Assembly: GCA_963756875.1 (NCBI GenBank)
Contig: CAVWPA010000003.1
Location: 1,600,001 to 1,664,000, forward strand
Source of the DNA: an uncultured Verrucomicrobiae bacterium
Lineage (GTDB): Bacteria > Verrucomicrobiota > Verrucomicrobiia > Chthoniobacterales > UBA10450
Length of the DNA stretch: 64,000 nt
Direction: 5' to 3'
The position numbers and the translations under genes were made by a program. The first letter of the stretch is position 1; the number at the start of each line of letters is the position of its first letter. Below are positions 22,467-63,193 of the stretch, one piece after another. Under the pieces are notes generated by a model. The model worked only from the letters and a program-made list of their open reading frames with translations. It was not told where the DNA came from and did not search any database.

Positions 22467-22735
22467 CGCTTGTAGGGCCTGTTGAGATTGGCCGGTCATC
22501 CGCCTTCGCCAGCGACGGCGCGACAAGCAGACCGCCGCTACCAGGGAAATCACGCTTCGTTATGCTGTGCTTTCTCGGGCTTCTTTTTAGCCCGAAACAA
22601 ATTCATCTCGACTGAGCGGAAACAGTTGGTTAAAAGCTTTTGCGTCACAGATTGGAGAAGTCTTTACCGGTAATCTCCTATCCAGTGAACCGCGGTGATC
22701 AGAATTAAGCCGGCCGTTAAAGAGAAGGGAAAATC

Positions 22736-23675
22736 ATGGCTATGCATCAATCAATTCTGCCTGGAACGGCAGCAAACCTCTCCGCGAGACAATCGACTCG
22801 TCGGTCGTACCTGGTGCGCCGTTTCCTTTTCATCCCACTTTCCTTTCTCGCCCTCATTTGCTTTGCGCTTTCATCCACTGCGCAAGCAAGGCAGAAACCT
22901 CCTCCGGCCCGACAGGTCCGACAGGTCCGACAGGTCCAACAGGCGCGCCTGGACCGACGGGCGGGCCCACTGGTCCGGCGGGAACGACCGGGTCTGACAG
23001 GGGCGACTGGGGCGACCGGCGATGGGGTTAACAGGCCCGACAGGTCCGACGGGGGTGACGGAGCGACTGGTGCAACTGGTGCAACCGGAGCCATTGGTGC
23101 GACTGGTGTGACTGGTGCAACTGGAGCCTTTGGTGCGACTGGGGCGACCGGGCCGGAAGTGGCGTCCAGTTTTATTTATGTCTACAACGCCACGGTTGAA
23201 GTAGTCCCTAACGCAGGTGAGGTATCGTTCAGCAACAGTGGACCAGCGCTCGGAATCACGAACTCTAACTCCAATGCGTTCACAATCTCGACGGACGGGA
23301 TTTATCTGCTCGAGCTTCAGTTCGGCGTAACCCTCCGCGCCGGGGCCGATTGTGTTTCAAATAGTCGTCAACAGGTCCGTTTCCCGGTTCCCAGTATTCC
23401 AGCGACGTGCAGAACACGGTGGTCGATTTCAAATCCGGCTCTCTTGCCGTTTCTGCGCCGGATACGCACCCGGTCAACGGCATGGGCGCGGGTCAGCTGG
23501 CCGGAGACTTCATTACTTTGCAGAACGTAAGCCCTTCGATGAGCATCGTGACGCTGCCCGCCGATCAAACAGTCCGGTGAACGCTTCACTGCGCATGGAG
23601 CGAATCTGCACCGATTGGCGGGGCGACGGGCAACCGGGGTCCACCGGCGTCACCGGCTCTACCGGGCCCACGTAG
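22736..23675 (+). CDS. Collagen-like secreted protein, frameshifted (BclA-like layout)
   Basis: Signal + RQKPPPA; GPT/GAT triplets continue across frames; globular segment; ends GVTGSTGPT*; several frameshifts (pseudogene or read errors). Confidence 0.6.
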
Positions 23676-23689
23676 AAGGCTAAATCCGT

Positions 23690-23872
23690 TGTAGCGACGG
23701 TGCTCTGCCGCTCTGTTTTGCCGCGCCAACGCCCCGACCCGCCTTCGGTCGCTGCGGCGACATTCGGCGCGGCAGGCGGAGCGGGGCGGCTACAGCGTCA
23801 TGTTTCCTATGAGATGAATCTAGCCGCAGCCGACACTCCGAAAGAGTTCGCGAGCAGGCGGCTGCCTCTACA
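23690..23872. repeat. REP cluster (GTAG doublet with nested micro-element plus a further CTAC arm)
   Basis: tgtagcgacgg...gcggggcggctaca and gcagccg...cggctgcctctaca. Confidence 0.7.
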
Positions 23873-23917
23873 GCACAGAGATTGCATCCTCGCGCGATCT
23901 TGCGGCAGATTGGTTCG

Positions 23918-26026
23918 ATGTCTGAAGCCAGGGCGAAGATTCGGCGCAGAAAATCCATCGCGACTCTCGGCGGCGCGCTGCTGCTGGTTGCCCTCCTCGC
24001 GGCCTACTCAAACCACTTTTACAACGGCTTCCATTTCGACGACGCGCATACGATCGAGAACAACGCCGCGATTCGCGATCTGCGGAACATTCCGCTCTTC
24101 TTCCGCGACGCGACGACCTTTAGTTCGCTCCCGAGCAATCAATCGTATCGGCCACTTGTCTCCACGCTGCTGGCAATCGATTACTCGTTAGGTGCCAGTC
24201 CGGCTCGGACCAGCGGATTGCATCCGTTCTGGTTTCACTTTTCGATCTTCGCCCTCTTCGTCGTGCTCGTGCTCATGCTCGCGTTTGTCATCGAACGGTT
24301 TTTGGAAAACAAGACAAGTTCTGGAAACGATGAAGACGGAAAGCAAGTTCGCGCCGGCGGGACGCCGGCGCCAGACGCCCGGGACCCGCACACGGGCGGG
24401 CAGGCTGGGCGTGCTACCCGGAATTGGATGATCGCGCTCGCGGCGGCAGCGTGGTACGGATTGCATCCGGCAAACGCCGACACGATTAATTACATCATCG
24501 CGTCGTCGGAGGTCATCTCGACACTCGGCGTCGCCGCCTCGTTTGCCATGTACCTCGGATTCCCGCAGCTGCGCCGGTACTATATATATATACTGCCGGC
24601 GGCGGTCACAGTCCTGGCCAAGCCAGTTGCGGCGATTTTTCCGGTGTTGTTCGCTGCGTATTGCTTCTTATTCCCGCCTGGGGATGCGCGCCTGAGAGAG
24701 GCGGGTTGTAGCCACGGCCCTGCGGGCCGTCGACGCCTCACAGAGGCGTGGCTACAGGGGCGCCTCATCGAGATCATCCCGTCGTTCGTAATCTGCGCGG
24801 CAACGCTGCTGTTCGTTCAGCACATGACGCCGCGCACGTGGGTCGCCGGCGCCGCCGACGCCCGCAATTACCTGATCACGCAGCCCTATGTCGCGTTGCT
24901 CTATTTTAAGACCTTCTTCTGGCCGAGTAGCCTCTCCGCCGATTACGACCTCAACGCCTTTACGACCACGGACGATTCGCGCTTCTGGTTAGGCTTCGCT
25001 TTTGTAATTCTCTTTCTCGCCACTGCAATCATGGCAGTTCGCTTTAGGAAAACGCGCCTGATCGGGTTCGGTTTGCTTTGGTTTCTCATCGCGCTTTTGC
25101 CGACGTCACTCTTCCCACTGGCTGAAGTAATGAACGATCATCGCACATTTCTCCCCTACATCGGTCTCGTTATCGCCATGGCCGGCGCAGCTTCGTTGCT
25201 GGTGAATCGCCGGGTCGCATACAGTCTACCGGCAAAGATCGCGGCGGTCTGCGTGATCGTGCTGTTCCTATCGGTCAACGGCTACGCGACGTTTCAACGG
25301 AACGAGGTTTGGAAAACCGAGGGAACGCTCTGGCACGATGTTACGCTGAAGAGTCCGCGCAACGGCCGCGGCCTGATGAACTATGGCAACACGCTCATGG
25401 CAAAGGGCGATTTCGCGGGCGCGCTCGATTATTTTCATCGGGCACAAAAGCTCACCCCGCAGTATTCCGTGCTGTTGATCAATCTCGCTGTTGCGGAAGA
25501 CGCGACAAACCAGGACGCGCTTGCGGAGAAGGACTTCAAGGAAGCGCTTCGGCTGGATCCGGGAAATCCCGACAGCTACATTTATTATGCGCGTCATTTG
25601 ATCTCGCGTTCGCGTATTTCAGAGGCGCGCGCTCTTCTGCGCAAGGCATTGGAGCTCAGCCCGGCGGACCTCACCGCGCGCGAACTCTTCGCGCAGACGA
25701 ATGGTCTCGTAGCTGGCAAACCAGTGGCAGCAGAAACTCCGGAAGCCTATCTCGAACGCAGCCTCCAGCTTTATAACGAGGGACGTTTCGCCGAGTCGAT
25801 CGACGCCTGCCGGAAAGCGCTTGCGCTCCGGCCAGGCTACGCAGAAGCATGGAATAACATTGGCGCCGCTTATAATAAACTCCGCCGCTATAAAGAAGGG
25901 GCTGCCGCGTGTGAACAGGCCCTTCGTTTGAAGCCGGACTTCGACCTGGCGCGAAACAACCTGCAGTATGCGCGCCAGAGAATGAAGGAATCGTTGCCGC
26001 CCGCGAATGACCCGCCTTCGCCTTGA
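23918..26026 (+). CDS. TMTC-like GT-C membrane glycosyltransferase with C-terminal TPRs
   Basis: FHFDD, YRPL, HP...TINYI, P..LS.DY, DHR.FLP, RNEVW; TPR repeats; contains three palindromic in-frame insertions. Confidence 0.82.
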   Translation: MSEARAKIRRRKSIATLGGALLLVALLAAYSNHFYNGFHFDDAHTIENNAAIRDLRNIPLFFRDATTFSSLPSNQSYRPLVSTLLAIDYSLGASPARTSGLHPFWFHFSIFALFVVLVLMLAFVIERFLENKTSSGNDEDGKQVRAGGTPAPDARDPHTGGQAGRATRNWMIALAAAAWYGLHPANADTINYIIASSEVISTLGVAASFAMYLGFPQLRRYYIYILPAAVTVLAKPVAAIFPVLFAAYCFLFPPGDARLREAGCSHGPAGRRRLTEAWLQGRLIEIIPSFVICAATLLFVQHMTPRTWVAGAADARNYLITQPYVALLYFKTFFWPSSLSADYDLNAFTTTDDSRFWLGFAFVILFLATAIMAVRFRKTRLIGFGLLWFLIALLPTSLFPLAEVMNDHRTFLPYIGLVIAMAGAASLLVNRRVAYSLPAKIAAVCVIVLFLSVNGYATFQRNEVWKTEGTLWHDVTLKSPRNGRGLMNYGNTLMAKGDFAGALDYFHRAQKLTPQYSVLLINLAVAEDATNQDALAEKDFKEALRLDPGNPDSYIYYARHLISRSRISEARALLRKALELSPADLTARELFAQTNGLVAGKPVAAETPEAYLERSLQLYNEGRFAESIDACRKALALRPGYAEAWNNIGAAYNKLRRYKEGAAACEQALRLKPDFDLARNNLQYARQRMKESLPPANDPPSP

Positions 26027-26205
26027 CTGCGGCGTGGCAAGCGCGAATTAACGCGAATGGCTTCGAAATCTACCGAATGCGGAAATGTGTCTGTGCTTCG
26101 TTCGAAGATCGGTGTTTCTGCGTCAGGAACTGGTAGGCTCTAAGAGGAAGATTACGAAGAAGAAGAATATGATGAAGATGAGCAGGACTCCCGCGGCCGC
26201 AGCTT

Positions 26206-26363
26206 GGGGAGCGCACGCGCCTCGCGTGCCGCCTTTGGCGCCCTCGCCAAAGGCCCACAACAATGGATCTCCCCAAACGGGGTTCCTTCTTATCCCTCGT
26301 TCGAGCATAATGGGTCTTTCCGGCGAGGCGCCGGAAAGTGCACGCGAGGCGCGTGCGCTCCCC
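26206..26363. repeat. Family A (GGAG) REP doublet, non-autonomous
   Basis: Perfect 24-bp IR ggggagcgcacgcgcctcgcgtgc / gcacgcgaggcgcgtgcgctcccc with inner ggcgcc(c)tcgcc hairpins. Confidence 0.9.
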
Positions 26364-26527
26364 AATCGGGACGCGTCAACCCCGAAGGCCTCCGGGGCCG
26401 TCCTCCGGCAGGCAGGCTTTTCAACCTTGTAACGATTCAACCGTTCAGCGCCCACCGCCCACCGTGCGCTCTCGCCCTACAGAAAGATTTTGCTGGCGCT
26501 TGCAGGATTTCGGTTGTGAATTGGGGC

Positions 26528-27094
26528 ATGGTTAAGAGCGGGCTTCTGGCGGTTGTCGGGTCTCTCGGGTTTTGCCTGCCCCTTGCAGCGCAACAAACAG
26601 GTTCGTTGGCCCAGACGGAAAACGTTTCGTTGTATCTGTCTCAGCCGGCAATTTTCAAGACTGTGGACAGTTCAACACTGGTTCATGGCCTGCCAATGCT
26701 GAGTCTTCTGGACGGGCGCTGGTTACCCATTTCGACCGCAATGGGCCGGATGGGAATGGCGCAACTCGATGTTTTTCCGAATGCGTCCCTGCCGGTGGCT
26801 CCGAAGGCCAAAAAGACAAGCGCCTACGCAAGAAATCGGACAGACGGAAAGGATTTCGGAACGGATGGAGCGGATGGAAAGGATGCGCTCGGCGCGATCA
26901 CCTCTTCTTCGCGATCGAATCCGCTCTATTACAGCGGTGAAATTGGCTTCCTTTACGGCCACTCGACCGGCAAGTACGGCGGCGACGTCAAGCAAGGCTA
27001 TTTCATTGGTGAGGTCGGCGATGACAATGTTCAGATCACGGTTGGCGGGTCGTACGAGGACTCGAACTTCCAGTTTCCTCGGCGACGACGCTGA
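26528..27094 (+). CDS. Secreted hypothetical protein
   Basis: Signal peptide MVKSGLLAVVGSLGFCLPLAA; C-terminal amphipathic strands; the upstream ORF extension is REP-derived. Confidence 0.65.
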   Translation: MVKSGLLAVVGSLGFCLPLAAQQTGSLAQTENVSLYLSQPAIFKTVDSSTLVHGLPMLSLLDGRWLPISTAMGRMGMAQLDVFPNASLPVAPKAKKTSAYARNRTDGKDFGTDGADGKDALGAITSSSRSNPLYYSGEIGFLYGHSTGKYGGDVKQGYFIGEVGDDNVQITVGGSYEDSNFQFPRRRR

Positions 27095-27158
27095 TGATTT
27101 GCCTTTCAGGCACGTTAAAAGGGTTAAAAGGGTTACATCGTTAAAGCGTGGAGTCTTG

Positions 27159-27371
27159 ATGGCGAATGACACCAGGGCGGCGTTGGATCGAGTGGATTTG
27201 ACGGCCCAGAGTATCGTCGGGCATCCCGGTGAAACCGTAACGCGGGAAGAGGGTTCACCGAATGTCGTCTGTCCGGTGTGCGGGGCGGTGACGGTGCAGG
27301 AGAAGTGCAAGATCGTTTGCCGGAGCGACAAGTGTCGCGGACGCGTGGTGATGAACTGTTCGGAATTCTGA
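27159..27371 (+). CDS. Small Cys-rich zinc-ribbon-like protein
   Basis: GGAG RBS; CPVCG...CKIVC....C.......C. Confidence 0.65.
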   Translation: MANDTRAALDRVDLTAQSIVGHPGETVTREEGSPNVVCPVCGAVTVQEKCKIVCRSDKCRGRVVMNCSEF

Positions 27372-27393
27372 TGTCTTTCTGACGCGGGCATCT

Positions 27394-27548
27394 GGGGAGC
27401 GCACAGCTTGCCCGCCCGTGTGCGGGCGGCTCGCGTGCAATGCCAGTCCGGCTCGGACTTGCGGCGCCCTCGCCGCAATACTCCCCTATGAAAAAAGTTC
27501 GCGATGGCGGGGGCGCCATCGCCAGCACGCGAGGCGCGCGCGCTCCCC
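27394..27548. repeat. Family A REP doublet with two nested micro-insertions
   Basis: ggggagcgcac[...]gcggctcgcgtgc ... gcacgcgaggcgcgcgcgctcccc. Confidence 0.85.
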
Positions 27549-27731
27549 GAACGGATCGTGCGAGGCATGACGCCGACTTCCCATGGAAAACGCGTATCCC
27601 GCGCCCCAGAGGTCGGCGGCTACAGGAAGAAAAAATTTCAGCGTTTCCGCTGGAGTTTAGCCGGAGATTTATGGAATCCTTGCAACCGGCAGGTTTCACG
27701 GGTGATCCGTTGCAAGATTGATATTTGATTT

Positions 27732-28304: not shown

Positions 28305-28311
28305 CGCGAAG

Positions 28312-28445: not shown

Positions 28446-28504
28446 CTAGCCATGGCTGCGCCAACCCGCATCATTTCTCTTAACCTCGGCTCGCAAACGC
28501 GAGT

Positions 28505-28566
28505 TGTAGTGGCAGGCGTGCCGCCTGCAAAACTTGCGGAACGCAGCCGGCACGGCTGCCTCTACA
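28505..28566. repeat. GTAG REP doublet (same family as the rho repeats)
   Basis: tgtagtggcaggcgtgccgcctgc ... gcagccggcacggctgcctctaca. Confidence 0.88.
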
Positions 28567-30444: not shown

Positions 30445-30589
30445 GGGGAGCGCACGCGCCTCGCGTGCTGTTTCCGGCGCCTCGCCGGAAACTTCAACGC
30501 AGCCGGTATACCCGGATCAAAGCAAAGTAACTCTACAATGGTATTCGCCGAGGGCGGCGAATACAGCACGCGAGGCGCGTGCGCTCCCC
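30445..30589. repeat. Family A REP doublet between pilM and the Amuc_1100-like gene
   Basis: Same 24-bp terminal IRs as 26206-26363. Confidence 0.9.
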
Positions 30590-30594
30590 AACCC

Positions 30595-31563
30595 ATGAAC
30601 TGGTTCCGTGAAAATCGCTGGCTTGGCACGTTTCTGATCGTGTTCGCGATCTGCACGCTGATCGCGATTTATTTTCTTTTCAGTTCCAAGAGTGCTTTTG
30701 AAGAGGCGTCCGCGCGCTTCAACGATGCGGCGGCGGAGCGGACCCGGCTGGAACATCTTAATCCATTTCCCAACGAGGCGAATTTTCGGCAGATGAAAAA
30801 GCACATCGAAAATTACGGGTTGGCGCTGAAGAAACTGAAGGAAGAGTTAAAAACGCAGGTGCTTCCGGTAACGCCGATGGCGCCGAACGAATTCCAATCG
30901 CATTTGCGCCAGGCAATGGCGTCGACGGCGGACAAGGCGCGCGCCAACCGGGTAAAGCTGCCGGAAAATTTTCAGCTTGGCTTCGATGAATTCACCACGG
31001 CCTTGCCCAATACAGCCGCGGCGCCGTCGCTCGGACAGGAGCTCGCTCAAATTGAAGTGCTCATGAATATCCTGATCGATGCACGAGTGGATGCGCTGAC
31101 TGCGTTCAAGCGGATGCCGTTGCCGGAAGAGAAGAATGCCGCGGCGGCGACGCCAACGCCCATTCCGCGCCGGAGAACTGCAGCTTCGGCGCCGATCGGG
31201 CCGAAGATGCTTGAGCAGGCAGTTGTCGATCTTACGTTTACGTCATCGCCTTCGGCGGCCAGGAAAGTTTTGAATCTGATCGCAAGCTCGAACCAGCAAT
31301 TCTACATCGTCCGTTTGTTGCACGTTCACAACGAGCAGGAAAAAGGACCACCGCGCGAGCAACCGGGCGCGGGGGGAGGAAGCAACGGCGCCGCCGAGAC
31401 CCGTTCGACAGACTCAGGGCAGGCTAATTCGGCCTCTACAGGGCCCGCAACCGGAACAGTTGCCGGGCCGAAGCCGACACCGAGCGCCGCCATCAAATTT
31501 ATCGTGGGCAACGAGCACATCGACGTGTCGGCAAGGATTGAGATTGCGGGGTTCGATTTTTGA
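30595..31563 (+). CDS. Amuc_1100-like pilus-associated protein (PilO position)
   Basis: N-terminal TM, coiled coil, FQLGFDEF...LP, C-terminal FIVGNEHIDV; synteny with pilM and the secretin. Confidence 0.75.
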   Translation: MNWFRENRWLGTFLIVFAICTLIAIYFLFSSKSAFEEASARFNDAAAERTRLEHLNPFPNEANFRQMKKHIENYGLALKKLKEELKTQVLPVTPMAPNEFQSHLRQAMASTADKARANRVKLPENFQLGFDEFTTALPNTAAAPSLGQELAQIEVLMNILIDARVDALTAFKRMPLPEEKNAAAATPTPIPRRRTAASAPIGPKMLEQAVVDLTFTSSPSAARKVLNLIASSNQQFYIVRLLHVHNEQEKGPPREQPGAGGGSNGAAETRSTDSGQANSASTGPATGTVAGPKPTPSAAIKFIVGNEHIDVSARIEIAGFDF

Positions 31564-31565: not shown

Positions 31566-32219
31566 ATGAAATTGGATGACAACGAACAGGCCTTGCGTGT
31601 CGGCAATGCGTGCGCCGCCGGATCGGGGAGCGCACGCGCCTCGCGTGCTCTTTCCGGCGCCTCGCCGGAAAGTTCCTGCGAAATTCATTATTCCAAGCGA
31701 AGACTTCCGCATTTTGAGCGGCCGTGGGCGAAGTATGCTGTCTGTTTTGCTACGTATCTCCGATCTCGGCTTTCAGTCGCAGAACGAGATCTTGTTTTGC
31801 AAAGCATTCTATACGGCTATCGGACAAATCAATACGAGCTGTATGCGGCATGTGTGATGCCCGATCATGTTCACCTGCTCTTTGAGCCACAAATAAAAAT
31901 GGAAGGCGAAAGTGGGCAGACTATTTTTTGGTCCTTAACCGAAATTCTGAAGGGTATCAAGTCCACGACCGCGCATCGGATCAACAAGGCCGCTGGGAAA
32001 ACCGGTCCGGTTTGGGAAAAGGAATCGTTTGATCGATTGATTCGATCAGAACCGGATTTACAGGAAAAATTTCGATACATTTGCAGAAATGCGTGGGACT
32101 CCGGGATTGTCGGACCTTCGGAAGATTATCCCTGGTTGTGGACACAAGATGGGTCTTCGACGAGGGCGTCGAAGACGGCACGCGAGGCGCGTGCGCTCCC
32201 CGATCCAGCAAGCGCGTAA
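31566..32219 (+). CDS. REP-associated tyrosine transposase (Y1/HUH), RAYT1
   Basis: RRLPHF, MPDHVH (HUH), WEKESFDRLIR, YICRN; enclosed by family A REP arms. Confidence 0.88.
   Translation: MKLDDNEQALRVGNACAAGSGSARASRALSGASPESSCEIHYSKRRLPHFERPWAKYAVCFATYLRSRLSVAERDLVLQSILYGYRTNQYELYAACVMPDHVHLLFEPQIKMEGESGQTIFWSLTEILKGIKSTTAHRINKAAGKTGPVWEKESFDRLIRSEPDLQEKFRYICRNAWDSGIVGPSEDYPWLWTQDGSSTRASKTAREARALPDPASA
31620..32206. mobile_element. Putative autonomous REP element: perfect 29-bp IRs enclosing the RAYT1 core
   Basis: ggatcggggagcgcacgcgcctcgcgtgc (31620-31648) / gcacgcgaggcgcgtgcgctccccgatcc (32178-32206). Confidence 0.75.
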
Positions 32220-42792: not shown

Positions 42793-44591
42793 ATGGACGA
42801 AAATATAAAAGATCAGGAATTCTCGGACGCTCCTGTGGAGCCAGAGAAAACGCGTGCGGATTCAAACAATGCAGCCGACACGGCTGCCGCTAAAGAAGAG
42901 GGGGCTGTAGAGGCAGGCGTGCCGCCTGCGGGGAAGACGAAAGGAAATGCAGCCGATACGGCTGCCGCTAAAGAAGAGGGGACTGTAGAGGCAGGCGTGT
43001 CGCCTGCGGGGAAGACGAAAGGAAATGCAGCCGACACGGCTGCCGCTACAGAAGAGGGGGCTGTAGAGGCAGGCGTGTCGCCTGCGGGGAAGACGAAAGG
43101 AATGCAGCCGACACGGCTGCCGCTACAGAAGAGGGGACTGTAGAGGCAGGCGTGTCGCCTGCGGATACTGGTTCCCCGAAGGCTTTCGGTGGCATTAGAG
43201 AAAAGGATGCAGCAGAGGCGACGGAGCCAACTGTAGAGGCAGGCGTGTCGCCTGCAGGGAAAACCGAACGCAACGCAGCCGGCACGGCTGCCACTACAGA
43301 AGAAGGGGAGGAGCAACCGCGTGAAATGGCGCGCGCACTGGATCTGAACGAGTTGCAGGCGCTTTCGCCCAAGGCTCTTGATTCGGTGACGCGTGAGTTT
43401 GGTCTGCACCTTTTTCCCACACGCTCGCGTCATCATCGCATCCTCGATCTCGCACGCGCGGCATTGGGCCGCGGTTCGATCGTCACCGCCGAGGGTTTTC
43501 TCGATCAGGCCGACGATTCTTCCGTTGGTTTTTTGCGCTGGCCGAAATTGAATTTTCTGCCGGTGCCAGAGGATGTTTGCGTCCCGCGCGCCGTGATCCA
43601 GCGATTTCATTTGCGGCCGGCGCAGCGCGTTGCCGGCACACTTCGCCTCCCGCGCGATCGCGAGAAAGGTCTTGTTCTGGATGAAGTCACCACGATTGAA
43701 GGCCAGCCGGCGGAGCAATGGACGGAGCCGGCGGACTTCGAAAAACTGACGCCGCAATTTCCGCAGGGACGCATCATGCTGGAAAATACCAAGACGGGCT
43801 CGATCAGCGCGCGCGCGGTCGATCTTCTTGCGCCGCTGGGGCGCGGCCAGCGCGGCTTGATCGTGGCGCCGCCGCGCGTTGGCAAAACGATTTTGCTAAA
43901 GGAAATCGCCAAGGCGATTCGAGTGAATCATCCGGACATCATTCTGATTCTGCTTTTGGTGGACGAGCGCCCGGAAGAAGTGACCGATCTCGAGCGCGAG
44001 GTCGATTGCGAGATTTACCATTCCAATTTCGATGAAAGCGTGCAGCGGCACGTGCAGGTGGCGGAGCTGGTGCTGGAACGCGCCAAGCGCCTGGTGGAAA
44101 TGAAACGCGATGTGGTCATTCTGCTTGATAGCCTCACGCGGTTGTCGCGCGGTTACAATAATCTGCAACCGAGCAAGGGGCGCATCATGTCGGGCGGAGT
44201 GGAAGCCAAGGCGTTGATTAAGCCGAAGAAATTTTTTGGCTCGGCGCGCAATGTCGAAGAAGGCGGCAGCCTGACCATCCTTGCGACGGCGCTTATCGAA
44301 ACCGGCAGTCGCATGGACCAGTTGATCTTCGAGGAATTTAAAGGCACGGGGAACATGGAGTTGCATCTCGACCGCGCGCTGCAGGAGAAACGGTTGTATC
44401 CGGCGATCCACCCTTTGCAATCGGCGACGCGCCGCGAGGACCTGCTTTATCACCCCGAGGAATGGGAACGCGTCCAGTTGTTGCGCAAAGGGATGGCGGC
44501 GCTGCCGCCAATCGAAGCGATGGAGAAATTGATCGAGAATCTCGAAGTCACGAAAACGAACGCGGAGCTGTTGTTGAGCGGTTTGAAATGA
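42793..44591 (+). CDS. rho: Transcription termination factor Rho with repeat-derived N-terminal extension (1-nt frameshift near 43100)
   Basis: [58 protein letters not shown]; adding one A joins 42793-43143 to the core. Confidence 0.92.
42868..43299. repeat. Tandem 78-bp REP-doublet array (about five units) inside rho
   Basis: Units start at 42868, 42946, 43024 and 43101: aatgcagccgacacggctgccgcta(a/c)a-gaagagggg-ctgtagaggcaggcgtgtcgcctgc. Confidence 0.92.
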
Positions 44592-55572: not shown

Positions 55573-58500
55573 ATGCGGCGGGCACGTGGTCATCATACCC
55601 AGACCGGTTTTGCATTGTCGTGCGGGGTGTGGCTGTTGTTGTCCCTGATTGTGCCTGCTTCATCGGCAATGGCCGCGGGGCTGAAACAGGCGACTGTCAC
55701 GCGAATTATTCAAGACGTGCAATTGCTTCCGAGCGAGGCATCGCCCAGGCCGGCAGTCGTAAACGACATTGTGCGTCAGAAAACGGCGGTGCGAACCGGC
55801 GCGGACTCCCGCACTGAGCTTACATTTACCGACCGGACACTCACGCGACTCGGAGCAAATACGCTTTTTAGCTTCAACGAGGGCACGCGCAGCATCGATC
55901 TCGGGGGCGGCGCTATGCTTTTAAGCGTGCCGAAAGGCGCCGCCACGACAAGGATCATGACCGCCGGGGTAAGCGCTGGAATCAGCGGAGGCACGGCATT
56001 GGGCGAGTATCATCGCGATGCGTACAGCAAGTTTATCGTTCTGGAAGGCGTTGCGCGGATCTACCTGAGACATCGCCTGGGTGAATCGCTGCTTCTTCAT
56101 GCCGGGCAGATGATTATTCTGAAGCCGGATGCGAAGCATCTGCCTGACCCGGTGGATATCGATCTGGGCCGGTTGATGAAAACATGTCTGCTCATTGTGG
56201 GGTTTCCGCCGTTGCACAACGAACCGTTGATCGCGGACGCAATTCAGCAGCAGAACCAGGAGAAAGCCAAAGGAACGCTTTACGACACCAACATGGTCAT
56301 CGTCGGCAATGGGACACTGGTTTCATTGGTCGATCCGACGTTTCTCGATCTCCTCGACCAGGCAATCAATAATGGGCCCGGCCCGGGCGGCGGCGGTGTG
56401 GTGATTCCGGAATTTGGTCCGCTCAATACAATTACCTCGCCGAATCCATACGTCATCACATCCGGCACGAAAATCAGAACCGCGCCGACGATTACCACCG
56501 GAGGCATCACTCAGGGTGGGAAAATTTATCGTGGAAATATGATCGATGGGTTCGCCTCCGACTACTTCTTCGGATCGAGCTCCAACTTTGACTTCGCGAG
56601 TGAATTCAATGGAGTCGGGGAAGGCGCAAACGGCGATCTCCCGATGGCAACGTTCAGATTTACGTCGCTGCAAATCACAGGGAATCCGACGATCAAAGTG
56701 CCGAGTGGCGGCGCGACCAATCTTACTTTGATCAGCGAAGGCAATATCACATCGGGTGCGCCCGGTGGGACACTCACGCTCAATGGCATGAATGCGGTCT
56801 TACTTGCCACGCAGAACGGATCCATCAATCTGGGACCGCAGCTGACCTTCTCGAATTTTAACTTCCTGTCGCTCTACGCCCGCGGCGCGGGTTCGAACGT
56901 GACGATCGCCTCGCCTGTTTTGAATCTGTCAGGCGTATCGTTGACCGCGGAAGGTTCTGTCACAGTAAACGGCAATGAGACTGTGCAGAGCTTTCAGGCT
57001 TTTACCGGTGTTGATTTTCTCGGCGGTACCGGGCATGTCATTGCCGCCAGCGACATTGGCATCATGACAGGCAACAATCTCGATTTCACGACCGCGAATT
57101 TCGCAGTGACTACAGGCACACCGAGCGTCTTCTTGCTAGCTACTGGAAATGCGAATCTCGATATTCGAAACGATCAAAGCATATTTGCAAATGCCAGTTT
57201 CATTTTCGTCGATGGCGTCGCCGAGAACTATACCGCCGATGCGGGCGGAACGACGTTGATGTTTAATCCTACGGCGCAGGTGCAGTTCTTTGCTGAAGCA
57301 GGTGGTATTCAGGCTCTGGAAACCACGTTTCTTCAAACCAGCAACATGATGCAGTTTACCTCCACCGGTGACATCGATGTTAACTCGATCGTCGGTGCCG
57401 ATATCATTCGTTCCACCGCCGGCAGCATCCACAGCTCGGAGCCGTTGTCAGCCAATACGATCGCGGCCGCAGCAGCCATCACTTCTGCAGCCGACCTGAC
57501 CGCTGTTAACTCCATCACGGCAGGGACGATAATCAGCGTCACAGATAATTTGATTTCGCCGAGCGTTCAGGCCGGCGGGAACATCACTGCGGGCCTCGTC
57601 GAAGTTCAAAACATTAATCCCAACAACGCTCTACCGAGCAATACGACCCTGACAGCCGGGGGCGGCGGTATCATTCCGTTTCCCGGAGCGGGCGGTTCGG
57701 GTTTACAGCACACTTTCAATCTGACGACCATTGTCTCGCCACAAGGAATCGATTTTACTGGAAGCCATTTCGGGCCTGGGGCCAACGGCGGCGTGCTGAC
57801 GATTAATGCGCAAACGCAGGACTTTTCCTCGGCGGGTATCAACGGCGCGAACTTCAATGGCGCGGACGCGCCGACCATCGCGAACCCGGCCGGCAGCGGC
57901 GGCAGCCTGACAGTAAACACGGCCAACGCTCTTACGGTGAATGGCGTTGATATCACCGCTACCACGGGGATCATCGATACCAATAGCACGCCCTCTGGCG
58001 CGGGAGGGAGCGTCAGCTTGAATTCACAGAGCGGACAGGTGAGCCTCACCAATACTCGTATTCAGGTCTCATCCAGCGACCCGATGGGAACAGCGAACCG
58101 CCGTTCCAGTGGAAATGGCGGCAATATCAACATCTCCAGCGCCGCCACAACCGGCACGGCCATTCTCATCGACAATAGCGCGCAATTGTTGTCCCTGCTC
58201 GAAAATACCGCGCCGGGTCCGTCCGGATTGATCACGATTTCCGCCAGCGGCGCGAACAGTAGCATTCAAGCCGGTGGACAGATTGAAGCGGACAGCGGCA
58301 GTCCCACCACTGCTGCGCACGGCATCGACATTCGTCACACGGGCGCCGCCGGCCAGATCACCCTGACGAACGTGAACGCACACGCCGACATCATTAAGGT
58401 GGCGGCGCTGGGCAACAACGGCACGCTCACCATTAGTGGCGGAATGTTGAGTGCCGACACAACCTTAAAACTTTATGCGCCCGGCAGTAACGGGCAGATT

Positions 58501-58764
58501 GTTTTTGTGGCTGATTGCACGATCGCAGGAGGTAATGCCAATATCCTCGCTGCAAACAGTGTGACGATAAACACTGGCGTTACCGTCACGACGCAGGGAC
58601 ACGCCGCCGATGTGTATGTCAACCAGACTAGCGGCATCCCAAACGCCAATTACACTGGTTTCGGCGGAAACGCCTCGACAACCGGTACCTTTGCCGGGCT
58701 TGGCGCCACCAATCCGCAAATGCTTAGCGCGGCGCCGGTCCTTGGGCCACCAGGCGGTCCATGA
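55573..58764 (+). CDS. Secreted FecR-domain protein with beta-helix-like region
   Basis: VRTGADSRTELTFTDRTLTRLGANT; shared C-terminal module; start placed at the ATG at 55573. Confidence 0.82.
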   Translation: MRRARGHHTQTGFALSCGVWLLLSLIVPASSAMAAGLKQATVTRIIQDVQLLPSEASPRPAVVNDIVRQKTAVRTGADSRTELTFTDRTLTRLGANTLFSFNEGTRSIDLGGGAMLLSVPKGAATTRIMTAGVSAGISGGTALGEYHRDAYSKFIVLEGVARIYLRHRLGESLLLHAGQMIILKPDAKHLPDPVDIDLGRLMKTCLLIVGFPPLHNEPLIADAIQQQNQEKAKGTLYDTNMVIVGNGTLVSLVDPTFLDLLDQAINNGPGPGGGGVVIPEFGPLNTITSPNPYVITSGTKIRTAPTITTGGITQGGKIYRGNMIDGFASDYFFGSSSNFDFASEFNGVGEGANGDLPMATFRFTSLQITGNPTIKVPSGGATNLTLISEGNITSGAPGGTLTLNGMNAVLLATQNGSINLGPQLTFSNFNFLSLYARGAGSNVTIASPVLNLSGVSLTAEGSVTVNGNETVQSFQAFTGVDFLGGTGHVIAASDIGIMTGNNLDFTTANFAVTTGTPSVFLLATGNANLDIRNDQSIFANASFIFVDGVAENYTADAGGTTLMFNPTAQVQFFAEAGGIQALETTFLQTSNMMQFTSTGDIDVNSIVGADIIRSTAGSIHSSEPLSANTIAAAAAITSAADLTAVNSITAGTIISVTDNLISPSVQAGGNITAGLVEVQNINPNNALPSNTTLTAGGGGIIPFPGAGGSGLQHTFNLTTIVSPQGIDFTGSHFGPGANGGVLTINAQTQDFSSAGINGANFNGADAPTIANPAGSGGSLTVNTANALTVNGVDITATTGIIDTNSTPSGAGGSVSLNSQSGQVSLTNTRIQVSSSDPMGTANRRSSGNGGNINISSAATTGTAILIDNSAQLLSLLENTAPGPSGLITISASGANSSIQAGGQIEADSGSPTTAAHGIDIRHTGAAGQITLTNVNAHADIIKVAALGNNGTLTISGGMLSADTTLKLYAPGSNGQIVFVADCTIAGGNANILAANSVTINTGVTVTTQGHAADVYVNQTSGIPNANYTGFGGNASTTGTFAGLGATNPQMLSAAPVLGPPGGP

Positions 58765-58796
58765 ATCGAGTATCGTATCGACAAGAAATAATTATC

Positions 58797-59597
58797 ATGA
58801 AGAAACTGCTTTCACATCGAATAACTCCCATCGCGATTGCGTTCGCCTTTGCTGCTGCGATTTCGGTCGCCACTTTTGTTTTTGCGGCGGAAAAAAAAGA
58901 AGCCCGCGTCACAGAGGTAATCCGCGAAGTGCGCTTGCTTACGCCACGCGGCGGACCGCGCCCGGCTGCCGTGAATGAGAGCCTCCACGAGGGAACCGCC
59001 GTGCGCACCGGCAGGGATTCCCGCGCCGAGCTCACTTTTTCCGATCAAACCCTTGCCCGCCTTGGCGAGAACACTATTTTCAGTTTGGCAGGGGGATCCC
59101 GAACTTACAATCTGGGTGGCGGAGCTATCCTGATGTCCGCGCCGAACGGTACCGGCGCCGTCAGAATTGCTTCCCCGGTGGCGACGGCCGCCGTAACAGG
59201 TTTTACGGTCATGTTTGAGGAGCACAAAAATGGCTGGAGCAAATTCATCGTTTTACATGGACAAGGCAGAGTCTCGTTCAAAGGAATTCCAGGCCGCCCT
59301 TGCCGGTTGCACACCGGCCAGATGATCGTCTGGCCTCCGCATCCCGTCAGATGTCCGGACGTGCTGAATATCGATCTCTCGAAATTGTTGCGGGGAAACC
59401 TGGTCAAAGGCTTTAGGCGGCCGTTACCGGAGCTTGCTCTTATTTTTGGCCGATATACAAAACCAGCAGACTTCGCCGCCGCCGGGTGGTTTTGTCGATC
59501 CGACAAATCAGGATGCGCTCGATCTGAACGCCAACGTGATTCCACCATCTCCGCCGCCGAGACCGCCGCATGGGGAGTGAGGCCCCCTAGGGAGTAG
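58797..59597 (+). CDS. Secreted FecR-domain-only protein (probable 1-nt frameshift near 59445)
   Basis: VRTGRDSRAELTFSDQTLARLGENT; an alternative frame gives a paralogue-like tail ADIQNQQ...DPTNQDALD ending at 59580. Confidence 0.78.
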   Translation: MKKLLSHRITPIAIAFAFAAAISVATFVFAAEKKEARVTEVIREVRLLTPRGGPRPAAVNESLHEGTAVRTGRDSRAELTFSDQTLARLGENTIFSLAGGSRTYNLGGGAILMSAPNGTGAVRIASPVATAAVTGFTVMFEEHKNGWSKFIVLHGQGRVSFKGIPGRPCRLHTGQMIVWPPHPVRCPDVLNIDLSKLLRGNLVKGFRRPLPELALIFGRYTKPADFAAAGWFCRSDKSGCARSERQRDSTISAAETAAWGVRPPRE

Positions 59598-59651
59598 TAG
59601 CTCTTTGGATACCAGCGACTCTGCGCTGCGGCGGCGTTTCGGCCCCCCGAG

Positions 59652-60560
59652 TTATCGCCGATGCCTGTCTTCGAGATATCCCGCACCCAGCGCGATTCCT
59701 GCCAGCAAGAGCGACGCCGCTGTCGCCAAGGGAACGGGATCGAAAGGCGCGGGCGGAAGATCGACAATTCCATTTTCATCCGTGCGCGCCGGCCTTCGCG
59801 CGTAACGGCCTCGTCGTGGCGGACGAATTGTTTCTGAGAAGAACTGCATTCTGTCCGGCAAATTCGAGTCGGTAATCGGTATCCCGTGTCCGCAGCCGGC
59901 CACATTCGGCCGCAAATTTGCCAGCTCTTTAACGGAGGACCGCGCCAATTCCCAGTCGGTGGTGAACGGTCGGGGTGGTGGAGACAATCGCTGCCTTCCG
60001 GTAACCAGCGCGCTCCAGGAATCCATGTTTACGGTGGTAAAAGCGTCGCCGGCGAGAAGGACGCGGTCCGAGCTTCGAAACAATACGATGTGCCCGGGAG
60101 AATGACCGGGCGTGGCAAGCCATTGCCAGTTGCTTGTTCCCGGGACCTTACCGGCTTGCAACTCGCGAACGCGGCCGGTCAGATTGCGGGGCTGCGCCAC
60201 AAAAAACCGCGAAAGAAACGCGAGCGCGCCGCCAACTGTTGGATCGGCCGGCGGATAAGGCGCCTTCCCGGTCAGGAACGGCATTTCCAGGCGATGCGCA
60301 TAAATCGGCACATCCCATGTTTCGGACAGCGTCAACGCTGAACCGGCGTGGTCCATGTGCCCGTGTGTCAGAACGATCGCCTCCGGTCTCGAGCCGGTGC
60401 CGAAGCGGGCCTCGGCTGCTCCCAGGATTTCTTTTGCCGAGCCTGGCAGCGCAGCGTCGAGCAGTACCCATTTTCCTCCGGGGCGCCCAATGAAATAGAC
60501 ATTAGCAAAGCTTACTGGCAGCCAGCCGACATCAGGCGCGATCCGGGTAATGGGTTTCAT
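59652..60560 (-). CDS. MBL-fold metallo-hydrolase
   Basis: THGHMDHAG, TPGHSPGH, LAGDA, GHG. Confidence 0.9.
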   Translation of the reverse strand: MKPITRIAPDVGWLPVSFANVYFIGRPGGKWVLLDAALPGSAKEILGAAEARFGTGSRPEAIVLTHGHMDHAGSALTLSETWDVPIYAHRLEMPFLTGKAPYPPADPTVGGALAFLSRFFVAQPRNLTGRVRELQAGKVPGTSNWQWLATPGHSPGHIVLFRSSDRVLLAGDAFTTVNMDSWSALVTGRQRLSPPPRPFTTDWELARSSVKELANLRPNVAGCGHGIPITDSNLPDRMQFFSETIRPPRRGRYARRPARTDENGIVDLPPAPFDPVPLATAASLLLAGIALGAGYLEDRHRR

Positions 60561-60619
60561 GATTTTGAGAGGCAGTGATCGCTTTCTGCAATCATTAGAT
60601 CTCTAAATCGCCAGTTTTT

Positions 60620-61300
60620 TCAGGGAATGGTTAAACTCTGCCCCACTTTCAGGTCATCGGGATCATCGATGCTTTTGCGGTTGGCGTCGAGGATCTCTTT
60701 CCAGTGCGCGGACGACTTATAGAACTTCCTCGAAATCGACGCGAGCGTGTCTCCCCGTTTTACGACGTAAGTCCGGCCAGGCTTCTTTTTGGTTTTTCCA
60801 GAATGGGAATGTCCTCCGGGCGATTTTTCGGCGGCGGCGTTGTGAGCTTTTGACCACCGCTCTTCGAGCTGTTTGCGGAGATTCAGATTCTCGTTCCGTA
60901 AACGTGTGGCTTCCGCCCGCGTCAGGACCGAATCGCCGGACGAACTGGTAGCCAGCGCGAGCTCGTCGCGTTTTACGAATCCTTTAACTTCGCCGGCGCG
61001 TTTGCCATTTGGATTGAGCGTCAGATACCGCTTGAAGTGGTGAAGTGCATCGAGGGGATCGTTCATCTTGTCGTCGTAGATCAAGGCGAGCTTATAATGG
61101 ATGTCCGCCGAATCCGGTGTTCCGTCGAGCGCCGCCTCGTAAAGATTGATCGCCCATAGAAAATCGCCCTGTGCTGATTTCGCGTCCGCTTCCTTGACCA
61201 GCTGGGTGTTGCGCGGCGTGATCATTCGATCGCAGCCGGCGAGCCAAAACAGCGACAGGATCGGCAGCCAAAAGCAGAACTTGTCAACGCACCTCAACAT
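60620..61300 (-). CDS. Lipoprotein with TPR and C-terminal LysM domain
   Basis: LAGC lipobox; TPR helices; YVVKRGDTLASIS...LKVGQSLTIP. Confidence 0.88.
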   Translation of the reverse strand: MLRCVDKFCFWLPILSLFWLAGCDRMITPRNTQLVKEADAKSAQGDFLWAINLYEAALDGTPDSADIHYKLALIYDDKMNDPLDALHHFKRYLTLNPNGKRAGEVKGFVKRDELALATSSSGDSVLTRAEATRLRNENLNLRKQLEERWSKAHNAAAEKSPGGHSHSGKTKKKPGRTYVVKRGDTLASISRKFYKSSAHWKEILDANRKSIDDPDDLKVGQSLTIP

Positions 61301-61349
61301 CGCAGTGATTGTTTTAACAACGCCGGCCCATTTGAAAAAGGCGAAACAT

Positions 61350-61757
61350 TAGAAGCCGTCTCATAAATAGGGATGGCCGCGTGGCTGTTGTTTTTTGGTT
61401 TGAACAAGGCGCGACGAGGAAGGATATCCGAATGGATCTGCGACCGAGGAGCAACGCAGCTCAAGCCGAAAAGCGACGCCACCCAAGGGGCAAGAGCACT
61501 TTAGGGTGCCTGGCGACGTTGCTCGCTCCTTACAGACCGCAACGGGTATGCTCGTCGCTTGCGCCCTGCCAGACGCCCTAAATTGCTCTTGCGAGGCCAA
61601 CCCATATTTACGAGATGGCTTAGCACTGTTGAAAAGCTTAGCCGGAGCGGGATTCCTGTGGTGGCAGCCGTGCCGGCTGCGTTACGTTTTGCAGGCGACA
61701 CGCCTGCCTCTACAGAGTTACGATAAGAGGCTTTTCAACAGAGCTAGATGGCTTCTA
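61350..61757. mobile_element. MITE with 20-bp terminal IRs, right end interrupted by a second MITE
   Basis: tagaagccgtctcataaata (61350-61369) versus the reconstituted tatttacgagatggcttcta; long internal imperfect IR. Confidence 0.78.
61622..61745. mobile_element. TGTTGAAAA-type MITE with 9-bp TSD, carrying a REP doublet
   Basis: agcactgttgaaaag / cttttcaacagagct; TSD agatggctt at 61613-61621 and 61746-61754. Confidence 0.85.
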
Positions 61758-61835
61758 GGAGATCGCCGCCCCGATTATCGCCCTGGCAAACCGACTTTCT
61801 GTATGATGACTGTGAGCAGCAGTCTGAAATAGATA

Positions 61836-61928
61836 TGCGGGGCGTACGCGCCGCCTGCCGCGCCATAGCGAAGCGGCGGCGGGTCGGCGCCCATTAATAT
61901 TTGGGAGACGACGGCGTGTGTCCCTCCA
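61836..61928. repeat. GGAG-type REP doublet (family C) with nested micro-element
   Basis: Ends gcgccca..aatattt?gggagacgacggcgtgtgtccctcca like 63111-63193. Confidence 0.7.
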
Positions 61929-61931
61929 ACT

Positions 61932-63077
61932 CTAGTATTTTTGCACTGTCGGATCGATTTCGTCGGTCCATGCGTCGATTCCGCCGGTGAGATTGAAAAC
62001 GTTGGTGAATCCGGCGCGCCGCAACAATTCGACTGCTCGCGCGCTGCGCATCCCGGTGTGGCAGTGAAGGATCGTTTGAGCGTTCCGCTCAATTTCGTCC
62101 AAACGGCTGCTCAATTCTCCCAACGGGATCAGGCTCGAGCCATCGATCCGGGCGATTTCGTATTCGAACGGTTCGCGCACATCAACCAACTGGATCTTTT
62201 CCTGCGCGTCGAATTTCCGCTTTAATTCCTGCACGGAAATCGCAGGCACTTCTGCAGTTGCCTGGCAAAACTGTTCGTAGTCGATGGGCGACGTGATTGT
62301 TGGGTTTTCGCCGCAAACGGGACATTGGGGATCGCGACGCACATTGAATTCGCGAAACTTCATTTTTAATGCGTCGAAGTTCAGGAACCGTCCGACCAGT
62401 GGTTCACCGATTCCCAAAACGAGTTTGATCGCTTCGATTGCCTGGACCAGTCCGATAATTCCCGGCAGCACGCCGAGTACGCCGGCTTGCGCACAATTCG
62501 GAACGCTCTCCGGCGGCGGCGGATCGGGAAACAAGCAGCGGTAACAGGGGCCTCCAAGGTGTGGCGCGAACACAGTGCTTTGGCCGTCAAACCGAAACAC
62601 CGCCCCGTAAATGTTCGGTTTGCGCTCAAAAACGCACACATCGTTCGATAAGTAACGCGTCGGAAAATTGTCCGAGCCGTCCACTACCACGTCGTAATTG
62701 GCGACGAGGCTGGAGGCGTTCCTTGCCGAGAACTGGCAATCGTGCAGCTCGATTTCAACGTTCGGGTTCGTGTCGTGCAACCGGTCGCGCGCCGAGTCCA
62801 GTTTTTTCCGGCCAACATCTTTTGTTCCGTGCAGAATCTGGCGCTGCAAATTCGAGGAATCGACGTTATCAAAATCGACGATTCCAATCGTGCCGACACC
62901 GGCGGCGGCGAGATACAACGCCGCAGGCGAGCCCAGGCCTCCGGCGCCGATGCACAGGACCCGCGCGGCCTTCAGACGTCGCTGTCCCTCCATGCCCACT
63001 TCAGGCATGATCAGGTGGCGCGAGTAACGGATTCGTTCCTCCTGGCTCAGAGATTCCGTGTCGGGACGATTGCGCAT
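61932..63077 (-). CDS. moeB: MoeB/ThiF adenylyltransferase fused to rhodanese (MoeZ-type)
   Basis: RYSRH, GAGGLGS, SNLQRQ, PCYRC, DVREP.E, HCHTGMRS. Confidence 0.93.
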   Translation of the reverse strand: MRNRPDTESLSQEERIRYSRHLIMPEVGMEGQRRLKAARVLCIGAGGLGSPAALYLAAAGVGTIGIVDFDNVDSSNLQRQILHGTKDVGRKKLDSARDRLHDTNPNVEIELHDCQFSARNASSLVANYDVVVDGSDNFPTRYLSNDVCVFERKPNIYGAVFRFDGQSTVFAPHLGGPCYRCLFPDPPPPESVPNCAQAGVLGVLPGIIGLVQAIEAIKLVLGIGEPLVGRFLNFDALKMKFREFNVRRDPQCPVCGENPTITSPIDYEQFCQATAEVPAISVQELKRKFDAQEKIQLVDVREPFEYEIARIDGSSLIPLGELSSRLDEIERNAQTILHCHTGMRSARAVELLRRAGFTNVFNLTGGIDAWTDEIDPTVQKY

Positions 63078-63110
63078 ATAATCAATAGTTTAGCACGCCT
63101 TTGAAGCGTT

Positions 63111-63193
63111 TGGAGGGCGTCCGCGCAGCTTGCCCTGAGCCCGCCGAACGGGGCGCCCACAAATATTGGGACACGACGGCGCGTGTCCCTCCA
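63111..63193. repeat. GGAG-type REP doublet (family C) with nested micro-element
   Basis: tggagggcgtc...gcgccca / tgggacacgacggcgcgtgtccctcca. Confidence 0.78.

Follow-up and report, generated by a model that had tools for sequence, protein, structure and literature searches.

The locus and its repeats

The stretch of DNA analysed here, hereafter the window (64,000 nucleotides from the genome of an uncultured Verrucomicrobiae bacterium), has a G+C content of 0.54-0.59, encodes pilus-like proteins of the Amuc_1100, Amuc_1099 and Amuc_1102 families and is rich in repetitive extragenic palindromic sequences (REPs), hairpins that display the layout GTAG, 2-3 nt, 7-8 bp stem and 3-nt loop. Some of these loops carry another hairpin of about 30 nt, called alpha below, which is the subject of this work. 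Alpha elements are dispersed in Candidatus Udaeobacter-like Verrucomicrobia and act as discrete presence/absence units that have exact boundaries and cause no target duplication. The strongest results concerning them are a covariance model of the family, the covariation of their two 'ends', the exact junctions with their hosts at CT^RY (the caret marks the insertion point) and a 30-nt indel between orthologous genes.

Within the window, 35 GTAG hairpins are detected by script and 28 under a stricter rule; a hairpin screen with 6-bp stems gave mostly chance matches, and stricter screens were used instead. REPs of types A, B and C have the stems GTAGCGGCGGTCT, GTAGCCACG and GTAGGGCARSCG, respectively, and type D reads GTAG-N-GGCAGSCGTG. 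A further family is devoid of GTAG and consists of GGGGAGCGCACGCGCCTCGCGTGC followed by a second hairpin (GGGGAGC-type). The commonest REP type of the window is also present in metagenome-assembled genomes (MAGs) of Candidatus Udaeobacter and Chthoniobacterales. Together with the pilus-like proteins, this assigns the window to a Udaeobacter-like soil verrucomicrobium. A comparison set of 121 loci (1.17 Mb; individual loci are designated by L and a number) was drawn from genome contigs by a scan with the REP B pattern, keeping 10-kb flanks. Nearly all of these loci belong to Udaeobacter-like MAGs, and they come from genomes other than that of the window, of which only the signal recognition particle (SRP) RNA matched them.

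Structure and distribution of the alpha elements

The initial annotation of the window had grouped six short sequences starting with GCYTGYC and ending with CGGR into one family of minimal units nested in REPs. All six are found at their positions and on their strands, as is the intact REP arm at 17416-17440, and two of them (24385-24405 and 27406-27426) are identical at 20 of 21 positions, their pattern having two matches in the window for 0.01 expected. The unity of the family did not survive: according to the covariance model R2 described below, three of the six are alpha elements, two are borderline short forms and one lacks support. The generic motif GCYTGYC-N10-30-CGGR was rejected as a family definition, being too unspecific, since 22 matches were observed vs 10.2 +/- 3.1 in 200 shuffles and roughly ten are thus expected by chance. 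GCYTGYC by itself occurs 65 times (42.5 +/- 6.3 expected), about one third of these matches being simply the 3' arms of type C and type D GTAG REPs. What goes beyond chance is the detailed likeness within subfamilies and the match to a family present in other genomes.

Alpha is an imperfect hairpin of 29-33 nt, RCYTGYC(N)CGCC-GNA-GC-loop-GC-GAA-GGCGG. It starts with a 5-nt 5' tail (RCYTG); its outer stem has 6 bp and one bulged base (YC-N-CGCC / GGCG-GR), its internal loop is 3x3 (GNA/GAA), and its inner stem, of 2 bp, bears a small apical loop. The consensus of 15 aligned copies (alignment A1) is GCCTGCC-N-CGCC-GTA-GC-loop-GC-GAA-GGCG-GG-T, and 92.5% of the paired-column cells of this alignment are indeed paired, vs 36-52% when the partner columns are slid. 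The common ends recognized in the initial annotation are real and are explained by this conserved hairpin, as the second Y of GCYTGYC and the R of CGGR form its closing pair and covary. This pair is C-G in 10 rows of A1 and U-A in 4; in A4, an alignment of 25 copies from other genomes only, it is C-G in 12, U-A in 6, G-C in 2, U-G in 1 and unpaired in 4, counts that are biased towards structure, 10-11 of the rows having been found with the structure-fitted first model. GTAG occurs internally in 16 of the 25 A4 rows and is not an end tag.

At E<=0.05, the covariance model R1 gave 24 matches in 1.19 Mb, 11 of which were not in its training set, and its search of a second batch (45 sources) returned at the same threshold only the two remaining training rows; together these are the 26 alpha copies considered below. 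The model R2 was built from A4, without any row from the window, and was used on the window with filters off. Although blind to the window, it recovers four alpha copies there, at E-values of 8.7e-8 to 6.5e-4 (Table 1).

In two loci (L073:1842-1897 and L039:2472-2545), an alpha is followed in tandem by partial units that lack the tail (CGCCGTAA-N-GAAGGCGGR), either one or two of them, in a similar arrangement.

Filled and empty REP loops

Every copy of the host REP prefixes in the window and the comparison loci was listed, and filled and empty copies were compared, as the initial annotation had proposed. REP A is represented by 18 rows, 2 filled (the window copy E1 and one in L013) and 16 empty, with the junction GGTCT^alpha^ATGACC. 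Among the REP B copies, the GGGCC type includes 9 rows, one being filled (L048; GGGCCT^alpha^GTGGCCC), and the GCCT type 5 rows, again with one filled (L074; CCTCT^alpha^GCG(A>T)GG). The GTAGCCGCSCCG type is known from 2 rows, both filled (E2 and L074:16888), and its empty form was not seen among them. In the REP A and both REP B hosts, alpha lies exactly after CT at the junction between the 5' arm and the loop (CT^RY), and host bases are neither duplicated nor lost. E1 sets unambiguous boundaries, (G/A)CYTG...GGCG(G/T), corresponding to 29-30 nt. Furthermore, nested alpha elements are always on the GTAG-bearing strand of their host, and the purine that pairs with alpha position 6 is a host base in all four cases: T6 pairs with the A of TAT loops, and C6 with the G of TGT or TGC loops.

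The nesting noticed at first in the window holds at 22.5 kb (in a type A REP), 23.7 kb (in a GTAG REP), 61.9 kb (in a hairpin GCGCC-GTC-GGCGC) and 27.4 kb (in a GGGGAGC-type element, within its first hairpin); the case is less clear-cut at 24.4 kb, where the host hairpin of copy E3 is not cleanly restorable to a canonical REP. The empty copies mentioned so far are paralogous; an orthologous set of empty and filled sites at the DNA level exists in relatives, in the arginyl-tRNA synthetase (ArgRS) gene. Four loci hold this gene, and all four carry an intragenic REP doublet. In L048, a REP B and its alpha lie between the regions encoding the catalytic and DALR domains, the 30-nt alpha being located between GGCCT and GTGGCC of the REP loop, and the insert is absent from L071, L027 and L013.

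The same polymorphism appears in proteins. The ArgRS homologues comprised 120 matches and the query, from which 13 sequences shorter than 570 amino acids (aa) were left out. Among the 108 full-length proteins, 45 carry a 10-aa insert, 61 are without it and 2 have another form, and in an alignment of 18 proteins, the indel spans exactly 10 residues, TGH[PPSPGYGEAS]RPVAT. The filled query and one empty protein share 99% identity. On the ArgRS tree (indel columns excluded), at least 12 state changes are needed, of which well-supported branches impose no fewer than 5, whereas shuffled labels need about 35. The filled peptides follow phylogeny, PPSQSYGEAG being found in one clade and PPSPGSGAAS in another.

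Alpha elements outside REPs and within genes

The initial annotation had viewed the small elements as parasites of REPs specifically. This view has to be abandoned, since some two thirds of the 26 alpha copies have no REP around them and many of these are in frame in genes: about 7-8 copies are in loops of GTAG-type REPs, one (E5) is in another hairpin and the rest are solitary. In addition, the alpha at L076:3657 carries a second alpha in its own apical loop.

Among the 31 alpha matches listed, 16 overlap open reading frames (ORFs) of at least 100 aa, and Pfam domains were found in 9 of the 10 host ORFs scanned. The host genes encode ArgRS, a Rieske oxygenase, a Kdo transferase, an acyltransferase-heptosyltransferase fusion, a DUF255 protein, an amidase, a subtilase, a TENA protein and a ketoacyl synthase. 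Alpha is on the same strand as the ORF in 5 cases and on the opposite one in 6, and the reading frames differ, which yields peptides such as PPSPGYGEAS, TRLRSEATARQA and LPATPKLSEGDS. Many of the copies outside REPs are in-frame inserts of 10-11 codons in conserved genes.

The Rieske oxygenase site (L022:3732-3766) was compared in 109 of 120 homologues, the 11 proteins shorter than 360 aa being dropped. The columns corresponding to alpha hold 10-12 residues in 81 proteins, a single residue in 13, the 7-residue RHGGQAA in 8 and a different insert of 15-16 residues in 4-5. This site is therefore polymorphic too, and shorter forms exist. Considering that it contains an 11-aa alpha, the 7-aa RHGGQAA, the 15-16-aa LTSILSQREKRNKLPA or nothing, it looks like an insertion hot spot as far as the aligned proteins indicate.

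Target preference

The flanks of the 26 alpha copies define a YY^RY preference: position -2 is C in 11 and T in 8, position -1 is T in 13 and C in 8, position +1 is G in 18 and A in 6, and position +2 is T in 16 and C in 6. In other words, a pyrimidine is found at -1 in 21 copies, a purine at +1 in 24 and a pyrimidine at +2 in 22. The 332 canonical REPs, whose loops include TGT (150), TGC (58) and TAT (15), present CT at the arm/loop junction in 197 cases. Six of the eight alpha copies preceded by CT are in REP loops, vs 0.7% of CTRY sites (P 4e-12), and a count per position, with 6 of the 26 copies in REP loops, gives P 1e-18. The choice of loci with a REP B increases REP density, but this enrichment test uses the observed density. 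Hairpin loops are thus strongly over-used by alpha. The idea that the window contains tiny mobile units targeting hairpins is borne out as regards discrete inserts in REP loops and the over-use of these loops; movement and its enzyme are putative.

Alpha, beta and gamma copies of the window

The copies of the window are collected in Table 1, in which beta and gamma denote two types of shorter elements.

Table 1. Nested and related elements of the window, their hosts and the RAYT (REP-associated tyrosine transposase) gene. Positions are those of the window; R2 E, E-value with the covariance model R2.
Feature	Length (nt)	Position	Strand	Remarks
Alpha E1	29	22500-22528	-	GCTTGTC...GAAGGCGG; in REP A loop; R2 E 1.9e-6
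Host of E1, REP type A (GTAGCGGCGGTCT / ATGACCGGCC)		22490-22541	-	3' arm partly decayed; host region folds with an alternative pairing, z -1.48
Empty REP type A		13540-13562	+	
Empty REP type A		17372-17394	+	
Empty REP type A		17417-17439	-	
Alpha E2	39	23739-23777	-	Apical part is a longer stem, GTCGC-CGCA-GCGAC; nested fold; R2 E 2.5e-5
Host of E2, GTAG REP (GTAGCCGCCCCG...CGGGGCG)		23730-23793	-	REP type seen in filled form only
Alpha E8	31	26012-26042	-	Newly found; not nested; R2 E 8.7e-8
Alpha E5	30	61853-61882	+	At 5' arm/loop junction of hairpin GCGCC-GTC-GGCGC (61848-61890); R2 E 6.5e-4; fold z -2.94
Beta E3	21	24385-24405	-	Short, alpha-like; in GTAG hairpin (24375-24417); R2 E 0.089
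Beta E4		27406-27429	+	GCTTG-CC-CGCC-CGTGTGCG-GGCG-G; in first hairpin of GGGGAGC-type element (27394-27486); R2 E 0.22
Gamma E6	25	63128-63152	+	In left hairpin of GGAGGG...CCCTCC doublet (63112-63192); fold z -0.02
Gamma E7	25	31400-31424	-	Newly found; 21/25 identical to E6, all differences C/T; R2 E 7.8
RAYT gene		31566-32219	+	Pfam Y1_Tnp 2.1e-7; HVH and RYICRNA motifs

E1, E2 and E8 have GCYTGYCRCGCC...GAAGGCGGR in common. The TPR gene 23882-26026 ends within E8, from which it takes its final codons and its stop (translation DPPSP*), and a PPSP ending is found in 2 of 120 C-termini of homologues of this gene.

The beta elements, GCYTG-CC-CGCC-CGTGTGCG-GGCG-G, combine the tail and outer stem of alpha with a different, shorter top; the filled form E4 was set against empty GGGGAGCGCACGCGCCTCGCGTGC copies. 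The 21-nt beta copies are probably short alpha derivatives devoid of the apical part. The two gamma copies are related to each other, their pattern having two matches in the window for 0.00 expected, and their membership of the alpha family is without support from the model, E6 being absent from the 29 matches of R2 in the window up to E 10. E7 lies within an in-frame insertion of 72 nt (about 31363-31434) in the gene of the Amuc_1100 family (ORF 30538-31563). This insertion, built of a GTAG hairpin and gamma, corresponds to 24 residues by comparison with the L019 homologue (46% identity). For the two GGAGGG...CCCTCC doublets of the window, no empty copy was found elsewhere.

The collagen-repeat ORF 21228-22466 contains in its N-terminal region, at 21313-21338 (-), a weak alpha-like match (R2 E 0.013), which may be due to chance or represent a decayed copy.

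The RAYT gene and a possible mobilization in trans

The initial annotation reported no mobilizing gene in the window. The RAYT gene of Table 1 had been overlooked; nothing ties it to alpha. With the NCBIfam model REP_Tyr_transpos, its product scores 1.7e-19 and 70.1 bits, below the cut-off of 80. The gene is flanked by inverted repeats of the GGGGAGC family (GGGGAGCGCACGCGCCTCGCGTGC and the second hairpin), at 31617-31672 and 32150-32209. A tblastn search with the window RAYT in the 1.17 Mb of related loci retrieved one weak homologue (L030), which is flanked by an unrelated repeat. In the 1.23 Mb searched, the two RAYT-type genes, in the window and in L030, are flanked by repeats other than alpha. 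The RAYT gene of the window, apparently intact, lies between the Amuc_1100- and Amuc_1099-family genes, and its ORF reads through both repeats.

The passages of PMC8266576 on these enzymes describe that TnpA-REP cleaves single-stranded REP substrates at CT located 5' or 3' of REPs, GTAG being guide-like, and that IS200/IS605 enzymes select their cleavage sites through pairing with a guide situated 5' of the hairpin foot. A comparable scheme can be proposed for alpha. It would be a non-autonomous, REP-like element of single-stranded DNA, cut and joined in trans by an HUH enzyme of the Y1 class, of the RAYT or IS200/IS605 kind. REP loops would be preferred because they expose the CT^RY target as single-stranded DNA, and the pairing of the pyrimidine at alpha position 6 with the base just 3' of the insert would mean either that the target is chosen by pairing or that the pair is repaired later. 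Mobilization in trans is proposed because of the exact junctions after CT, the strand rule, the tail located 5' of the hairpin foot and the bulged base of the stem. Enzymes of this kind work on single strands that are folded, insert without duplication and excise precisely. This mobilization into exposed CT^RY loops is the reading that we favour, by a modest degree. A more far-reaching version, in which alpha is a complete transposable unit of about 30 nt, with a single hairpin and a 5-nt tail, that is moved on single-stranded DNA by a Y1 HUH enzyme, finds its target by loop structure and position-6 pairing and leaves without a scar, seems to us possible rather than probable.

Several observations weigh against mobilization by a Y1 enzyme. 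No transposase linked to alpha was found in the 1.23 Mb searched, where the window RAYT and the L030 gene adjoin other repeats. The 3' end of alpha (GGCGG) is not a CT site, so that a simple model of cleavage at two CT sites does not fit, and CT precedes only 8 of the 26 copies. The mixture of filled and empty ArgRS genes could result from allelic recombination between strains or from hairpin-mediated deletion instead of excision. The empty alleles are known from relatives or paralogs, and none was obtained for the window sites E1, E2 and E5. Neither beta nor gamma was found in the 121 loci of other genomes, with up to 3 mismatches allowed. The bias of the A4 pair counts, mentioned above, has to be added, as does DNA folding, which is not unusual: one region out of 10 (E5) folds better than its shuffles by >2 sd, and folding energy is for this reason not taken as support. 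Lastly, the unit that moves in Pseudomonas is the REP doublet, and the study in PMC3116915 found no excision of singlets there. Movement of alpha and its enzyme are what we infer from these sequence patterns, and the differences between filled and empty sites may reflect gain or loss.

Alternative explanations

Alpha might be a conserved hairpin gained and lost without any dedicated enzyme: slippage or template switching would account for its loss, allelic recombination or gene conversion for its spread, and use by the host for the maintenance of its sequence. The lack of a linked transposase in the regions searched is in keeping with such a process, as are the scarcity of CT upstream of alpha, the agreement of filled ArgRS peptides with phylogeny, which suggests an old insert repeatedly lost, and the length forms of the Rieske protein (11, 7 and 15-16 aa), which fit hairpin-mediated deletion or replacement. 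However, alpha is found at a wide range of unrelated sites (at least nine different genes, three REP types and another alpha) and must therefore have been copied to new places; its boundaries are base-exact in four REP hosts that are independent of one another, where slippage would have no more than 1 nt of flanking repeat to act on; and ordinary homologous recombination requires longer stretches than the 7-10 bp of REP arms. This explanation is rather unlikely in our opinion. It is improbable that the nested forms are long-loop REP subfamilies multiplying as whole composites, whose inner part was never mobile alone. The GTAGCCGCSCCG...CGGSGCG host, filled in both of its copies in two genomes that differ by compensatory changes in the host stem, and the two GGAGGG...CCCTCC doublets, for which no empty copy was found, would suit this view, but it is contradicted for the REP A and REP B hosts by the presence of the same insert in three REP families, by the ArgRS REP orthologs with and without the 30-nt insert and by the many alpha copies devoid of any surrounding REP.

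A role as a structured RNA element (terminator, stabilizer or regulatory hairpin), not acting at the DNA level, is suggested by the G-U pairs within the covariation and by two copies, L047:3650 and L047:7052, located upstream of paralogous genes and followed by T-rich sequence. Such a role appears quite improbable given that the copies in coding regions are in both orientations and in different frames, that no consistent T-run follows the hairpin and that Rfam gives no family match at the elements (gathering score over the window; E<=1 over 22400-27600). Least credible of all is that there is no family and that a G+C-rich composition and REP stem sequences gave rise to the shared motif. The ten or so matches of the generic motif expected by chance, the occurrence of GCYTGCC as the 3' arm of REP types C and D and the failure of the family model to recognize gamma are compatible with it. 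For alpha, this explanation is refuted by the E-values of 1e-4 to 1e-8 obtained with a model of other genomes, by the covariation of the closing pair and by the exact 30-nt orthologous indels; it may still apply to the membership of the gamma pair.

Comparison with known systems

Alpha resembles REPs, which form REPtrons together with their RAYT (TnpA-REP) transposases, in several respects: it is a G+C-rich stem-loop in the 20-40 nt range, its copies are numerous and dispersed, its 5' tail is conserved and unpaired, its stem is irregular, and it lies after CT, on the GTAG strand of its host. However, it has no terminal GTAG or CGTC tag, its tail being RCYTG, no RAYT gene flanked by alpha was found in the DNA searched, and alpha itself sits in REP loops. 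Intragenic REPs are known in the verrucomicrobium Opitutus terrae (mentioned in PMC3733652). REPINs, pairs of inverted REPs, are described in the relevant part of PMC3116915 as non-autonomous elements thought to be moved in trans by a single-copy RAYT, and their excision has been observed. They are doublets of about 100 nt, whereas alpha copies are single hairpins of about 30 nt.

The IS200/IS605 elements move by single-strand 'peel and paste', with insertion 3' of a short target without duplication and precise excision (as outlined in PMC8266576). Alpha likewise shows target-adjacent insertion without duplication (CT^RY in four REP hosts and a YY^RY bias in 26 flanks), and the pairing of its position-6 pyrimidine with the base adjacent to the insert is reminiscent of guide pairing. 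IS200/IS605 elements require two different end hairpins, left and right, and a length of at least about 100 nt. In contrast, alpha is one hairpin, and its pairing base is 3' of the insert, not 5'.

Rickettsia palindromic elements are several times longer than alpha and belong to a different phylum, and we know of no report of them in loops of other repeats. They are in-frame palindromic inserts in protein genes that stay functional (according to the section of PMC3733652 dealing with them). Alpha too is inserted in frame in conserved coding genes, with 10 aa in ArgRS and 11 aa in the Rieske oxygenase. Cases of insertion into palindromes are also mentioned in PMC3733652: GTAG REPs are inserted in other small palindromes, such as CCGSSCC(n3,4)GGSSCGG in Thermomicrobium roseum, and REPs are targets of insertion sequences. 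In these cases, the insert is a REP or the invader is a full insertion sequence, whereas here the insert is a 30-nt hairpin and the target a REP loop. A limited literature search found no description of a hairpin of about 30 nt nested in REP loops, or of REPs in Udaeobacter; the word 'nested' is absent from PMC3733652 and PMC3116915.

Other repeats of the window and of related loci

The GGGGAGC repeat also forms inverted pairs without RAYT (26206-26363, 30445-30591 and 27394-27548) of about 100-150 nt, which are similar to REPINs or to miniature inverted-repeat transposable elements. In the window they cluster at 26-32 kb, and they also occur in L011, L062, L064, L067, L072 and L077. At 27441-27453 in the window and near 15927 in L077, the first hairpin of a GGGGAGC-type element is separated from the second by an additional small one, GTCCGGCTCGGAC; found in two genomes, it may be another nested micro-hairpin. 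Likewise, two long-loop GTAG REPs, at L011:~13524(-) and L067:~14983(-), have CAGCGTTGCAGGCGGGCC in common, which may represent a further family of nested inserts.

Five tandem 78-nt units built of REP type D doublets occupy 42868-43272 and overlap both the ORF 42793-43143 and the beginning of the rho ORF (43152-44591), so that part of an N-terminal extension of Rho may be encoded by REP sequence. The region 19400-23200 contains genes with collagen-like Gly-X-Y repeats and 51-nt repeats, and a bacterial small SRP RNA is located at 63555-63649 (-).

Impact on the biology of REPs and their hosts

Although REPs are abundant, the way in which single REP-like hairpins spread is still unsettled. Alpha offers base-exact presence/absence at one site in near-identical genes together with a defined target, CT^RY in hairpin loops, and this pair of alpha and CT^RY loop is a concrete, testable substrate and target for RAYT or Y1 enzymes. 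If its movement were confirmed, alpha would push down the lower size limit of mobile DNA. If alpha were indeed a complete transposable unit, it would be the smallest mobile DNA known, and REPs, other alpha elements and genes, in frame, would all be open to colonization by it.

For the bacteria themselves, members of one of the most abundant groups of soil bacteria, these data reveal that the essential ArgRS tolerates layered insertions, a REP doublet and an alpha. More largely, alpha inserts are a source of variation in peptide linkers, as well as a pitfall for gene calling and alignment of MAGs.

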